Below are positions 38,900 to 42,860 of a stretch of DNA of 64,000 bases, in pieces. The notes beneath the pieces are model-generated. The model was not told the DNA's origin, searched no databases, and was given only the letters and a program-made list of their open reading frames with translations. The translations under genes and the position numbers were made by a program. The first letter of the stretch is position 1, and every line of letters begins with the position of its first letter. The stretch is from Pseudomonadota bacterium (GTDB taxonomy: Bacteria; Pseudomonadota; Gammaproteobacteria; Ga0077536), in the NCBI GenBank assembly GCA_027618655.1, contig JAQCEL010000001.1, positions 2,238-66,237 on the forward strand. Reading direction: 5' to 3'.

Positions 38900-40885
38900 A
38901 TGTCTGCATCGCCAATCCGAACAAGACCCGAGTGGCGACTAACAGCGCGTATATTCCTACTCGGCGCGTTATTGTTGGCCTCGCTCGCTTACTTACCAGG
39001 TATTGGCGGCGGATTCGTATTTGACGATTACAACAATATCCTGTTCAACAAAGATCTGAAATTCGAAAACTTCAATCTGGCGAGCTTATTTCAGGCCGGA
39101 TGGTCTGGTGTTGCGGGGCCGCTCAAGCGCCCGTTGGCTATGATGAGTTTCGCAGTAAATTTCAGCACGACTGGCGATTTCATTCCAGCCTTCAAAATTA
39201 CGAATCTCCTTATTCATCTTGCGAATGGCATATTGATGTTCATATTTCTGCGAATACTGATCCGGTCCACCGGGGATCAGAGCGGTTCCGAAAAATTGAA
39301 TCACGCGATGCTCGCAGCCGTTGCAGCTTCGATATGGTTGCTACACCCTCTGAATCTCACCTCGGTACTTTACGTTGTGCAAAGGATGAATAGTCTTTCG
39401 GCACTATTTTCGCTGACGGGGATTATTTGCTATTGCGTTGGCCGCCAACGGCTCGAGGACGGGCGAGAAAACGGCTGGTGGTTGATTGTTGGGTGTTGCC
39501 CGATGTTGATCGCCCTTGCGATTTTGTGCAAAGAAAATGCCGTAATGACGTTCCCGCTTATCGCTTTAATCGAAATTTGCTTTTTTCGTCTGCGGACTTC
39601 CATGCCACGTGACCGCGCGTTGTTGATCGGGTTTTTCGTCGTCACGCTTCTCGTCCCGAGTGTCCTTGCAAGTCTGTATGTTTTTTCACATCCAAATTTT
39701 ATTCTTGGTGGCTACATAAATCGGCCATTTTCAATGACAGAGCGCCTGCTAACAGAAGCAAGAGTCGTGTGGTTCTATTTGGCGTTACTTTTAGTTCCAA
39801 GGTTGAGCCAATTTGGGCTATACCACGACGACTATGTGCTATCGACGTCGATTTTTGATCCCGTCACTACACTTCCCTCGATTGCTTGCCTCGCAGTGGT
39901 AGTGGTGTTGGCCGTTTACGGCACCAAACGATATCCGATCTTCTCATTTGCTGTAGGTTGGTACGTCGCCGGGCACATCATGGAGTCGAGTGTGATTGGG
40001 CTCGAACTCGTTCACGAGCACAGAAATTATATGCCAAGCATCGGTATCGTATTCGCCTTGTGCTTTGGCGCGGCACGCTTTTTCGAATCGGGTTCGTACG
40101 CCCAGCTTCAGAAGATTGCAGTTGCAGCGATTATTGTTCTATGCACTTTATTGACCTATCTGCGTGCCGGGGATTGGAGTGACCCCGCGACGCTTGCCGT
40201 CGTCGAGGCGCAACGACACCCGAATTCGCTCCGGTCTGTTTATGACCTCGGTAGAATTCAATTCGGCTTACACCAACTCACAGGTCGGCAAGAGTTCTAC
40301 GACCAAGGGATAGCGAACTTGGAGCGCTCCGTGCTAATCGATCCGAGTGCAACACGACCACTGATTGGGCTACTGCGAATGGAGTACGAGAGTGGCCATA
40401 CGCCGAGGCCCGAATGGATGTTGGAGGCCTTAGAACGTTACGAAAACACCCTTTTTCATCCCTCAGAAACAGACGATTTATATCGTCTAGTTCAATGCCG
40501 CACGCAAACCAACTGTGCGTTTCCGGCAAGGGATGTGGAGCAGCTATATCGAGCGGCTTTGCGAAATAGTTCGGTGCCGAAATATTCAAGAGCTCAATTG
40601 ATGGTTGATCTCGCCGTTTTATATGTAAACGAGTCGTACGAATTAGAACCTGCGATGAATTTGCTCGACGATGTCGTCTTAGCATTTCCAACAGAATTCA
40701 ATTTTCGAAAAATTCGCGCACAGATCTACTTGATGGCAGAAAGGTATAGCGAAGTTGCGGAGGAAACGAAATATATGCGGTCGATTTCGGTATGGAGAGA
40801 TCTTATAAATTCACCGATTGATGAGATTTCTACGCTTGAACGTGCGGTAGCGGACGCAAGCAAACTCAAACAACCGAGTCCTTGA
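38900..40885 (+). CDS. GT-C-like polytopic membrane glycosyltransferase with C-terminal TPR-like domain (TfpW / TMTC / PMT-like), copy 1
   Basis: 661 aa. About 11 predicted TM helices in the first ~400 aa. Acidic motif GGGFVFDDYNNI in the first extracytoplasmic loop, the position of the catalytic DD/DE in GT-C enzymes. C-terminal ~250 aa are helical and repeat-like (TPR). Immediately downstream of pilA. Confidence 0.55.
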   Translation: MSASPIRTRPEWRLTARIFLLGALLLASLAYLPGIGGGFVFDDYNNILFNKDLKFENFNLASLFQAGWSGVAGPLKRPLAMMSFAVNFSTTGDFIPAFKITNLLIHLANGILMFIFLRILIRSTGDQSGSEKLNHAMLAAVAASIWLLHPLNLTSVLYVVQRMNSLSALFSLTGIICYCVGRQRLEDGRENGWWLIVGCCPMLIALAILCKENAVMTFPLIALIEICFFRLRTSMPRDRALLIGFFVVTLLVPSVLASLYVFSHPNFILGGYINRPFSMTERLLTEARVVWFYLALLLVPRLSQFGLYHDDYVLSTSIFDPVTTLPSIACLAVVVVLAVYGTKRYPIFSFAVGWYVAGHIMESSVIGLELVHEHRNYMPSIGIVFALCFGAARFFESGSYAQLQKIAVAAIIVLCTLLTYLRAGDWSDPATLAVVEAQRHPNSLRSVYDLGRIQFGLHQLTGRQEFYDQGIANLERSVLIDPSATRPLIGLLRMEYESGHTPRPEWMLEALERYENTLFHPSETDDLYRLVQCRTQTNCAFPARDVEQLYRAALRNSSVPKYSRAQLMVDLAVLYVNESYELEPAMNLLDDVVLAFPTEFNFRKIRAQIYLMAERYSEVAEETKYMRSISVWRDLINSPIDEISTLERAVADASKLKQPSP

Positions 40886-41051
40886 GCTCTTCGAATTTGT
40901 GTATTAACAACCACAGTTTAATCCTCGTCGATTGCGTTGACGAAGGAGTCGCAAGATCGTCGGGCTACGGATCGAAATTACTTAATTCATGCGCACTGAT
41001 GTCCTTCGTTATTAGGTTAATTGATGCATCGCCGAACTGCGTCGCTAACCG

Positions 41052-42860
41052 TTGAGACAAGCATTGAGTAGACCAATGGTTGCCAATTTCGCATTGGCCG
41101 CGGTCTGCCTCACTCTTTTGGTTATCTGCTGGCCAGGACTGTCTGGTCCATTCGTGTTCGACGATTTGCCAAACCTCCGATCGATTGGCTTCGAGAACCC
41201 ACCGAACTACCGCAAGTTCATATTTTCAAATGAATCCGGAATCCTAGGTCGGAGCGTCTCAATGATGACGTTCGCGCTGAATCACTTCGTTCGAGGTGAA
41301 TTCAATAGCTTCGATCTCAAATTGACCAATCTCGCGATTCACATCGCCAATGGTTTGTTGCTCTACTGCATCGTGTTGAGTTTGTTTGGATGTGCCATTG
41401 CACGACCGCAAACTCAATGGATCGCCTTTCTTGTTGCTGCGCTATGGCTTTTAAATCCAACAAATGTCAGTACCGTACTTTATACGATACAACGCATGGC
41501 CTTGCTTGCTTGTTTCTTTACGTTCATCGGCATATTGAGTTATGTACGATGGCGAGGATCAAACGCGACTACTGTGATTTCGCGGCACTATTATTTACTT
41601 ATTTGCGCGGTGAGCTGGCCGTTGGCCTTTTTGTCCAAAGAAAACGGTATTTTGCTTCCGTTTTTAATATTGATCGTCGAATTTGGTTTTTATTCAGTCG
41701 GACGAACATTTCAAGGTATACGCGTCGTACTGATCGGCCTGCTAATCGGCGGGATCGCGAGTATTTACGCGTTGCAGACTCACGAGCTATTACGTTACAC
41801 AAACCGTAGTTTTTCCTTAATCGAGCGACTTTCAACACAGCCTGTTGCTGTTGCTAGCTACATCCGCGATTCAGTAATCCCGCTAAGCACCGATATCGGT
41901 TTATTTAGTGATGACTTTCCCGTTTATAAGACGCCTCTGAATTTTGCAACGATCTGTCTTTCTTCACTGATTGCATTTTTCATTATGCTTGGGCTTTTTG
42001 CTAACGAGAAATCGTCGCTGCGAAGAATTCTCTGCGGGTTGCTGTTCTACTTCGGTGCTCATTCAATTGAGAGCACCGCAATCCCACTCGAAATATATTT
42101 TGAACATAGGAATTATTTACCTTCGGCCGGGCTGTATTTATCGTTGGTCTCGGCTGTTTACGCGGGAATTTCCGGCCGAGATAATTCGCGAATTTTGGCG
42201 ATGTTCTTGTCATTCTTTCCATTGTTGTGGTTCTCGTTTGTTAGTTATCACGAGGCGCTGGCGTGGTCATCGTGGACCAGCGTTATTTCCAATCAATATG
42301 AACATCATCCGACGTCTGCTCGAGCCGGCCTAGAAATGGCATCGTTGCTGATGGATTCGAATAATGTTGAGGCTGCGTTCGCCGTGAATGATTTGAATGC
42401 GGCTCACAACCCAAAGATGAATTTAAATATAAAATTGCAGCGGTTCTATCTCTATTGCGTAAGCGGGAAACTAGTTGATGAAGCCGAGTACGACTCGCTT
42501 CACGGGCAACTCGCGCGAGGAAATGAGCTCGCAAGGGCTACCGCCTTTGATCTGCTGTTTAAAATTCGCGACAAAAACTCGTGCCCAAATTTGAATTTCG
42601 ATAGAGTGATGCATCGTATATCTGAAATGGTCGAATCAAGCTTGAACAACCGGACGATTACGACTACGCAAGCATGGCACATAGAATATTACCTAATGGA
42701 ATTCGATCGCTCGGTCGGACGCTTAGATAACGTTAGGAGTCGGCTAAAACGAAGTATCCAAGGTGGAAATGTCAAAGCTGCATTCTATGAGGAAGATGTG
42801 CTGAACCCCGGATCTTCTGAAGGTTCTGATTCGATCCGAAATGATCAGATCGACAATTAG
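41052..42860 (+). CDS. GT-C-like polytopic membrane glycosyltransferase with C-terminal helical repeat domain, copy 2 (paralog of 38900..40885)
   Basis: 602 aa with the same architecture and motifs at equivalent positions: SGPFVFDDLPNL, EHRNYLPS (copy 1 has EHRNYMPS), LTNLxIHxANG. Confidence 0.55.
   Translation: MRQALSRPMVANFALAAVCLTLLVICWPGLSGPFVFDDLPNLRSIGFENPPNYRKFIFSNESGILGRSVSMMTFALNHFVRGEFNSFDLKLTNLAIHIANGLLLYCIVLSLFGCAIARPQTQWIAFLVAALWLLNPTNVSTVLYTIQRMALLACFFTFIGILSYVRWRGSNATTVISRHYYLLICAVSWPLAFLSKENGILLPFLILIVEFGFYSVGRTFQGIRVVLIGLLIGGIASIYALQTHELLRYTNRSFSLIERLSTQPVAVASYIRDSVIPLSTDIGLFSDDFPVYKTPLNFATICLSSLIAFFIMLGLFANEKSSLRRILCGLLFYFGAHSIESTAIPLEIYFEHRNYLPSAGLYLSLVSAVYAGISGRDNSRILAMFLSFFPLLWFSFVSYHEALAWSSWTSVISNQYEHHPTSARAGLEMASLLMDSNNVEAAFAVNDLNAAHNPKMNLNIKLQRFYLYCVSGKLVDEAEYDSLHGQLARGNELARATAFDLLFKIRDKNSCPNLNFDRVMHRISEMVESSLNNRTITTTQAWHIEYYLMEFDRSVGRLDNVRSRLKRSIQGGNVKAAFYEEDVLNPGSSEGSDSIRNDQIDN

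Follow-up and report, generated by a model that had tools for sequence, protein, structure and literature searches.

We analyzed a 64,000-nucleotide stretch of DNA (hereafter the window) from a Pseudomonadota bacterium of the gammaproteobacterial lineage Ga0077536 (GenBank assembly GCA_027618655.1, contig JAQCEL010000001.1, positions 2,238 to 66,237 of the forward strand), in which two adjacent open reading frames (ORFs), here termed ORF-A and ORF-B, encode predicted glycosyltransferases of the membrane-embedded GT-C type. A preliminary description of the window, made from the sequence alone, had regarded the two proteins as tandem but divergent paralogs that combine a GT-C domain with tetratricopeptide repeats (TPR) and had raised the possibility that both act on the product of the neighboring pilin gene. 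ORF-A and ORF-B were found on the + strand directly 3' of pilA, at the coordinates first reported for them. The genes on which the argument turns are listed below, where TM denotes transmembrane and GT2 glycosyltransferase family 2.

38312-38740, + strand: pilA, type IVa major pilin, 142 aa (Pfam Pilin 2e-24, N_methyl 1.6e-10)
38900-40885, + strand: ORF-A, 661 aa, 11-TM GT-C domain followed by a TPR domain (ORF call, alignments, model)
41052-42860, + strand: ORF-B, 602 aa, paralogous GT-C domain followed by a shorter, diverged helical-repeat domain (ORF call, alignments, model)
54708-55595, - strand: polyprenyl-phosphate sugar synthase, a GT2 protein with two C-terminal TM helices (homology, PDB, NCBIfam)

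The product of pilA has a Ser/Thr-rich globular part and a Cys pair at its C-terminus and is the presumed acceptor of glycosylation; no other gene in the window carries a prepilin motif. The gap between pilA and ORF-A is 159 bp.

Pairwise alignment of ORF-A and ORF-B by BLASTP revealed 28% identity over 452 aa (E=1e-43), with residues 19-453 of ORF-A paired to residues 13-432 of ORF-B, a span that represents the membrane domain. This similarity is far above chance and ORF-A and ORF-B are true paralogs, as the preliminary description had claimed. Three motifs are common to the two proteins: a DD loop motif (GGGFVFDDYNN in ORF-A and SGPFVFDDLPN in ORF-B), a second motif in which KITNLLIHLANG of ORF-A is the counterpart of KLTNLAIHIANG of ORF-B, and a third that reads HEHRNYMPS in ORF-A and FEHRNYLPS in ORF-B. 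In a family alignment of 54 sequences (ORF-A numbering), residues D42, D43, K99, H106, H374, R375, N376 and Y377 were invariant, R77, Q161, R162, K211, E212, Y293, P300 and D310 were invariant or near-invariant, and F39, F41, T101, N102, L103, N109 and G110 were at least 90% conserved. All three of the motifs first noticed are located on family-invariant residues, and only the earlier wording of the first as FVFDD-x-N proved slightly loose, with Asn following the DD pair at +2 and +3 in ORF-A and at +3 in ORF-B. ORF-B (in which the pair is D37-D38) and its own subfamily retain the same catalytic residues and, thus, neither copy looks like a dead enzyme. A recent repeat or a pseudogene was likewise ruled out by the 28% identity and the intact invariant residues of both copies.

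Two start codons were considered for ORF-B, TTG at 41052 (602 aa) and ATG at 41076 (594 aa). The public annotation of this protein (P0121) instead begins at Met71 and is 532 aa in length, such that TM1 and the FVFDD motif are absent and the catalytic motif is hidden. Since the long N-terminus is conserved in 13 subfamily homologs, one of the two longer starts is favored. No obvious ribosome-binding site was detected at either the TTG or the ATG.

Searches of Pfam, NCBIfam and PDB sequences with the membrane domains returned nothing useful (in Pfam at E<=1, ORF-A and ORF-B gave nothing beyond a spurious DUF6057 match at 0.48), and only fold and profile methods were informative. We compared the family alignment to the N-terminal 511 residues of human TMTC3, a manually entered query sequence whose numbering agrees with the published account (PMC7801869) at every checkable position (D31/D32, S66-P72, K118-T134, R143, K188-T193, D303/W304, P358/P361 and E375/R376/Y379). 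By this approach, the family alignment matched the TMTC3 sequence over 428 columns with an hhalign probability of 99% (E=8.8e-18), and ORF-A alone matched it by BLASTP (E=1e-13, with a second segment at 1e-5). The likeness to TMTC enzymes proposed in the preliminary description is, thus, borne out at the sequence level. Seven conserved motifs, M1 to M7 (DD, SHKSYRP, RxD, KE(T/Q)xxT, DW, PxxP and ERxxY), have been listed for the TMTCs (PMC7801869). The DD pair of ORF-A aligned with D31-D32 of TMTC3, R77-P78 with R71-P72, R162 with R143, K211-E212 with K188-E189, and Y377-M-P-S with Y379-V-P-S, and these TMTC3-aligned motif residues are invariant in both paralog lineages. Their TMTC3 counterparts are residues modelled in PMC7801869 to bind the dolichyl-phosphate-mannose donor and the metal ion. 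Motif M1 is retained in full, M2 as its R-P only, M3 as its R only (within QRM), M4 as K-E (within KEN) and M7 as E-H-R-N-Y-x-P-S, while M5 is replaced by HDD.

The structural model of ORF-A displayed a helix pattern of 11 TM helices, with a GT-C domain at approximately residues 1-425 and a TPR domain at approximately residues 426-661. In the model the DD pair is situated in the loop following TM1, K211-E212 between TM5 and TM6, the HDD sequence (309-311) in a long loop preceding TM8, and EHRNY between TM9 and TM10, with the C-terminal domain on the same side as loop 1. The N-terminal multi-pass membrane domain has the helix arrangement of the GT-C superfamily, and the acidic motif expected in the first extracytoplasmic loop of such enzymes is present as D42-D43 in ORF-A and D37-D38 in ORF-B, invariant or nearly so. 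Four Arg/Lys residues are found among the first 17 positions of ORF-A which, by the positive-inside rule, places the DD loop and the C-terminal domain in the periplasm. A periplasmic location of the DD loop, as opposed to a cytoplasmic one, is supported by this prediction, by the 11-TM count of the model and by homology to the luminal DD of the TMTCs; PhoA fusion data have in addition been published for loop 1 of the pilin glycosyltransferase TfpW (bioRxiv 10.1101/2020.04.19.049825). The external DD pair envisaged in the preliminary description is, thus, upheld by prediction.

The helical C-terminal domain of ~200-250 aa that had been ascribed to each protein was also recovered, the domains being all-helical in the models, with lengths of ~237 aa (ORF-A) and ~203 aa (ORF-B). 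BLASTP detected no similarity between the two C-terminal domains. Profile-profile alignment of ORF-A with ORF-B did, however, extend ~150 columns beyond the membrane domain into the C-terminal domain and included a region of conserved Cys residues. The ORF-A family profile matched consensus TPR proteins (best E=1.4e-19); in ORF-B, TPR was seen at the fold level only, and weakly, its C-terminal domain having diverged beyond sequence-based TPR detection. Residues C533 and C539 occur in at least 90% of the ORF-A relatives. C511 was universal among the relatives of ORF-B, and C469 was kept by at least 90% of those relatives across the wider family. Such conserved C-terminal Cys residues would be consistent with disulfide bonds formed in the periplasm, and so with the predicted topology.

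The family to which ORF-A and ORF-B belong is large. The membrane domain was used as query in an exhaustive search by phmmer, in which each cluster of 50% identity was reduced to one representative; 28,325 representatives were detected at E<=1e-3, 13,189 at E<=1e-10 and 5,040 at E<=1e-30, and a scan of one genome per species revealed 502 loci that encode a relative. Plasmids carried no copy of the ORF-A or ORF-B type as judged by tblastn. Gene neighborhoods were counted for the best 79 of the 502 loci, which are from Gamma- and Betaproteobacteria and include Undibacterium and Sulfuricella isolates; 69 of these have enough upstream sequence to be informative. Of the 69 loci, 66 had a pilin gene directly upstream of the GT-C gene and in the same orientation, at a median gap of ~155 bp. 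When downstream ORFs were clustered, the gene immediately after the GT-C gene(s) was found to encode a GT2 protein of ~290 aa that carries two TM helices at its C-terminus. Within 7 kb 3' of the GT-C gene, 53 of 69 loci encode this GT2 synthase, and 46 of these 53 have it on the same strand at a distance of 550 bp or less. The recurrent order thus defines a conserved module in which pilA is followed by one to three GT-C/TPR genes and then by a polyprenyl-phosphate sugar synthase. That ORF-A and ORF-B probably act on the neighboring pilin, as suggested previously, is strongly supported by conserved gene order. A gene for a family 4 glycosyltransferase (GT4, GT-B fold) often follows the GT2 synthase (e.g., locus L023, 10807-12048), and a broad GT4 cluster was represented in 38 of 80 sources (the 79 loci and the window) at a median position of 2.

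Two or three GT-C copies were present in 16 of the 79 loci. A neighbor-joining tree built from the membrane domains placed ORF-B, with its L001 and L002 orthologs, together with the second-position copies of L010, L011, L017 and L047 on a deep branch outside the main clade, and the duplications of L003-L005, L007/L015 and L068 were younger and fell inside the main clade. The tree thus indicates that duplication has been recurrent and that the ORF-B lineage is old. The preliminary description had likewise called the pair an old duplication, and the low identity together with the placement of ORF-B in a deep clade of second copies bears this out. In locus L068 (723-6642) a single pilin gene is followed by a tandem array of three copies, and L082 (8001-15048) has one copy between pilR and two pilin genes with two more copies after the pilins. 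An assignment of one paralog to each pilin gene was considered and rejected, as pilin and GT-C copy numbers do not track and the window has only one pilin.

The GT2 gene at 54708-55595 of the window encodes a protein 55-74% identical to that of the gene directly 3' of GT-C in most related loci. Its PDB sequence matches are ArnC (3e-16), an archaeal Dol-P-Man synthase (8e-15) and GtrB (1e-5), and its NCBIfam matches are AglJ (7e-33), PpgS (7e-22) and PgfS (1.8e-17), as well as Dol-P hexose transferase and ArnC. All of the NCBIfam matches are polyprenyl-monophosphate sugar synthases, and the GT2 protein is presumed to make a lipid-linked monosaccharide donor. Another GT2 gene of the window, at 45419-46201, was considered as the conserved neighbor and discarded, being no more than a distantly related GT2; the inverted gene at 54708-55595 is the true ortholog. 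Between ORF-B and this ortholog lies an inserted block of ~12 kb and lower GC content (43053-54601; 0.43-0.49), the sequence that separates the two genes ranging from 0.43 to 0.50 versus 0.50-0.55 in the flanks. The remaining features of the region are listed below.

34895-36613, + strand: pilS, two-component regulator of pilin expression (ORF call)
36615-37955, + strand: pilR, two-component regulator of pilin expression (ORF call)
38789-38818, + strand: hairpin between pilA and ORF-A (inverted repeat)
43053-49975, + strand: glycan-gene block of a Wzx-like flippase, a methyltransferase, a GT2, two GT4 and a second methyltransferase (Pfam, NCBIfam)
50605-54601, 3' of the glycan-gene block: trio of DUF4956, CotH-kinase-like (871 aa) and VTC-domain proteins

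The glycan-gene block (GC 0.47-0.49) has close counterparts as a whole (79-85% identity) only in the close relative L001, where it also follows ORF-B, and one of its GT4 proteins has relatives of 38-41% identity in four other loci. The block does not belong to the conserved module. No initiating phosphoglycosyltransferase was detected in this cluster. A VTC and CotH-like pair also flanks the pilin/GT-C cluster of the distant locus L082 (15061-17761; CotH 34% and VTC 26% identity), and housekeeping genes lie 3' of the GT2 gene at 54708-55595.

The order pilS-pilR-pilA-GT-C was also observed in 26 related loci, and the homologues of pilS and pilR in L082 carry the Pfam labels PilS/HisKA and Sigma54_activat. 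The hairpin at 38789-38818 has 13-bp arms (AAAACGCCTAGGC and GCCTAGGCGTTTT) that are 100% complementary and are followed by CATTT, with a dG of -21.8 kcal/mol and a z of -5.4. Its likely role is that of a terminator or attenuator which keeps read-through into the glycosyltransferase genes low, and it matches the stem-loop that has been described 3' of major pilin genes with accessory genes and that limits expression of the latter (PMC11841053). Further upstream, the - strand of 20918-26395 carries genes for ZapD and CoaE, an ORF (22352-23221) in the pilD position, and pilC and pilB, and the segment 16-20907 resembles a dcw (cell-division/cell-wall) cluster as judged from ORF sizes and order alone; nothing unusual was noted in this context upstream of pilS (16-26395).

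Taken together, we consider it likely, from sequence comparison and modeling, that both ORF-A and ORF-B are inner-membrane GT-C O-glycosyltransferases, competent for catalysis, that modify PilA and that share a donor but differ in acceptors. From this we infer a scheme for the pilin as acceptor, the type of donor, the identity of the sugar and the division of labor. On the cytoplasmic face, the GT2 protein of 54708-55595 would take a monosaccharide from its nucleotide-activated form and attach it to undecaprenyl phosphate, and the lipid-linked sugar would be brought to the periplasmic face by a flippase. The GT-C site, predicted to be formed by the loop-1 DD pair, R77, R162, K211-E212, the HDD loop and E373/R375/Y377, would then move the sugar to Ser/Thr residues of PilA before or during pilus assembly, with the periplasmic TPR domain picking the acceptor. 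The two enzymes may modify different sites of the pilin; alternatively, ORF-A may start the glycan and ORF-B may lengthen it or act on another substrate. The preliminary description had proposed two specificities, either for different sugars or for different acceptors. As the pair comes with only a single conserved polyprenyl-phosphate sugar synthase, a common donor and separate acceptors are probable for the paralogs; the former option is less likely and the latter likelier. The donor is probably an undecaprenyl-phosphate monosaccharide, since genes for D-arabinofuranose (D-Araf) synthesis (DprE1, DprE2 and PRPP-transferase) were found neither in the 64-kb window nor among the neighbors of the 79 sampled loci; their absence near ORF-A and ORF-B is not decisive, as the D-Araf genes are unlinked to tfpW in P. 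aeruginosa. Members of the DprE1, UbiA and GtrA families were also sought in the loci without a GT2 synthase, and none was detected.

Several observations weigh against the proposal that both enzymes use a polyprenyl-phosphate sugar to modify PilA. An upstream pilin gene was lacking in two or three of the 69 loci, with L066 and L070 as true exceptions. Neither ORF-A nor ORF-B matched Pfam PF08409 (TMTC_DUF1736, the TM7-TM8 loop), PMT or PMT_2; thus the proteins are homologs of the TMTCs yet fall outside of the Pfam-defined TMTC family. The YX6PFX7P motif of TfpW is matched only in part, in that Y293-x6-P300 is invariant while the next residues are R or L and not F, and the +9 position is a conserved His and not Pro. 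In the window the GT2 synthase gene is displaced ~12 kb from ORF-B and inverted. No GtrA or ArnE/F-type flippase was found in any locus examined. The Wzx/GT cluster next to ORF-B leaves room for an undecaprenyl-diphosphate oligosaccharide as donor. Finally, P0126 (L080/L081, 8001-9773), a protein 52% identical to ORF-B, is encoded alone between Rieske oxygenase and DAHP synthase genes with no pilin nearby, suggesting ORF-B-type enzymes may have other, non-pilin acceptors.

The last two points relate to alternatives that differ from shared modification of PilA. A division in which ORF-A alone glycosylates PilA, and ORF-B modifies another protein (minor pilins or other envelope proteins) or a glycan, or else serves mainly as the partner in a heterodimer similar to Pmt1-Pmt2, would fit the solitary P0126, the deep separate clade of ORF-B-type genes, the C-terminal domain of ORF-B that lies beyond TPR detection and the GT-C copy number that does not follow pilin gene number. 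Self-interaction of TfpW in two-hybrid assays and the function of PMTs as dimers (PMC7759382) are in line with a heterodimer. Yet ORF-B retains every catalytic invariant, its position in the pilA operon is kept in the window, L001 and L002, and its sequence points to no alternative acceptor, and we find this division rather unlikely. Transfer of an oligosaccharide en bloc, in which an undecaprenyl-diphosphate-linked glycan built by the adjacent GT2, GT4 and methyltransferase proteins would be flipped by Wzx and moved onto the pilin in the manner of PglB/STT3 for Asn and TfpO/PglL for Ser, is suggested by the genes directly 3' of ORF-B (wzx, one GT2, two GT4 and two methyltransferases) and by the naming of TfpW as an oligosaccharyltransferase in its literature. 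This reading is disfavored because the Wzx/GT block is a low-GC, non-conserved insertion with close counterparts of the whole block only in L001. The gene conserved with the family encodes instead a polyprenyl-monophosphate sugar synthase, the conserved motifs correspond to those of the TMTCs for dolichyl-phosphate-mannose binding, and the cluster lacks an initiating phosphoglycosyltransferase; en bloc transfer is, thus, an unlikely route. A function unrelated to the pilin, in which the proteins would be GT-C enzymes similar to ArnT or GtrC that modify lipopolysaccharide, exopolysaccharide or lipid A and the pilA site merely a hotspot for glycan islands, could explain the sugar-nucleotide and polysaccharide genes found further downstream in many related loci and the inserted island 3' of ORF-B. 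It is opposed by the close same-strand pairing with pilA across two proteobacterial classes (66 of 69 loci, gap ~155 bp), by the TPR domains, which suggest a protein acceptor as in TMTC and TfpW, and by the genetics of TfpW as a direct precedent. We consider this function very improbable.

Pilin modification by both paralogs can also be taken a step further. The pair may form a two-step periplasmic line, possibly as a Pmt1/Pmt2-like heterodimer, that draws on one undecaprenyl-phosphate sugar pool, with ORF-A adding the first sugar to Ser/Thr of the pilin and the diverged ORF-B, in which the acceptor-binding domain can no longer be recognized as TPR, extending it or serving a second class of substrates. 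The module of pilA, TMTC-like GT-C and DPM1-like synthase, in ~500 proteobacterial species, could then correspond in prokaryotes to the eukaryotic O-mannosylation of adhesion proteins by TMTCs, and might even be ancestral to it. This extension is speculative, and we would give it a small though appreciable chance of being correct.

Pilin glycosylation alters phage susceptibility, immune recognition and pilus behavior. To our knowledge, TfpW is so far the only GT-C and TPR pilin glycosyltransferase to have been studied. The present analysis relates such pilA-linked enzymes to the human TMTC O-mannosyltransferases as sequence homologs and places them in a large family that is nearly always flanked by pilA and a DPM1/ArnC-like synthase. 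The literature searched reported no explicit TMTC sequence homology, near-universal pilA/GT-C/synthase module or recurrent tandem paralogs for enzymes of this type. A compact three-gene bacterial system with a presumed pilin acceptor could serve as a model to study how TMTC-type enzymes choose acceptors through TPR, and the recurrent tandem duplications may be viewed as natural experiments in the divergence of specificity.

By architecture and position, ORF-A and ORF-B belong to a known kind, the GT-C and TPR pilin glycosyltransferases exemplified by TfpW of P. aeruginosa (group IV, Pa5196/PA7), which, set beside ORF-A by its published description, is the closest characterized bacterial enzyme and closest known precedent. 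The preliminary description had named TfpW only for comparison, and its statement that bacterial TMTC-like enzymes are largely uncharacterized overlooks this precedent. TfpW is a 646-aa protein encoded immediately after pilA. Its N-terminus is cytoplasmic, 11 TM helices are predicted, and a DDx motif in periplasmic loop 1 is essential; the protein also has a YX6PFX7P motif and, in the periplasm, a TPR domain. It is needed for the addition of alpha-1,5-D-Araf to Ser/Thr of the pilin, and ArnT was its best modelling template (Villela et al., bioRxiv 10.1101/2020.04.19.049825). ORF-A matches this description in position, size, TM count, DD loop and TPR. The donor of TfpW is polyprenyl-phosphate D-Araf made via DprE1, DprE2 and PRPP-transferase, whereas the loci of ORF-A and ORF-B have the conserved GT2 synthase instead. 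By contrast to the tfpW locus, the window also has no TfpX and two tandem paralogs rather than one gene.

Other known systems resemble the pair in part. TfpO/PilO, PglL and PglS are likewise pilin-modifying membrane enzymes, and the tfpO gene is also located directly 3' of pilA. Unlike ORF-A and ORF-B, which gave no Pfam or NCBIfam match to Wzy_C and are unrelated, TfpO, PglL and PglS are Wzy_C-family enzymes that transfer undecaprenyl-diphosphate-linked oligosaccharides en bloc. The Pgf system of S. mutans, a functional analogue that O-glycosylates Ser/Thr-rich adhesins outside of the cytoplasm, likewise combines a single polyprenyl-phosphate sugar synthase of the GT-A type (PgfS) with a pair of GT-C proteins (PgfM1 and PgfM2). 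These two contribute differently: no glycosylation occurs without PgfM1, and loss of PgfM2 does no more than shift the mobility of the glycoprotein. By contrast to ORF-A and ORF-B, PgfM1 and PgfM2 are YfhO-family proteins without TPR, are from a Gram-positive organism and have acceptors other than pilins. The PMTs (Pmt1/2/4, fungal and actinobacterial) have a MIR beta-trefoil as soluble domain in place of TPR; ORF-A and ORF-B are 11-14% identical to them, with neither a MIR domain nor a Pfam PMT match. The TMTC1-4 proteins, which O-mannosylate cadherins, share the 11-TM GT-C domain and a luminal or periplasmic TPR domain with ORF-A and ORF-B, and motifs M1, M2, M3, M4 and M7 align. Unlike the TMTCs, ORF-A and ORF-B have no DUF1736 match, carry HDD instead of DW in loop EL4, have a much shorter TPR domain (~240 aa), and are bacterial and pilin-linked, while the donor logic, based on a DPM1-like polyprenyl-phosphate sugar synthase, is common to both.

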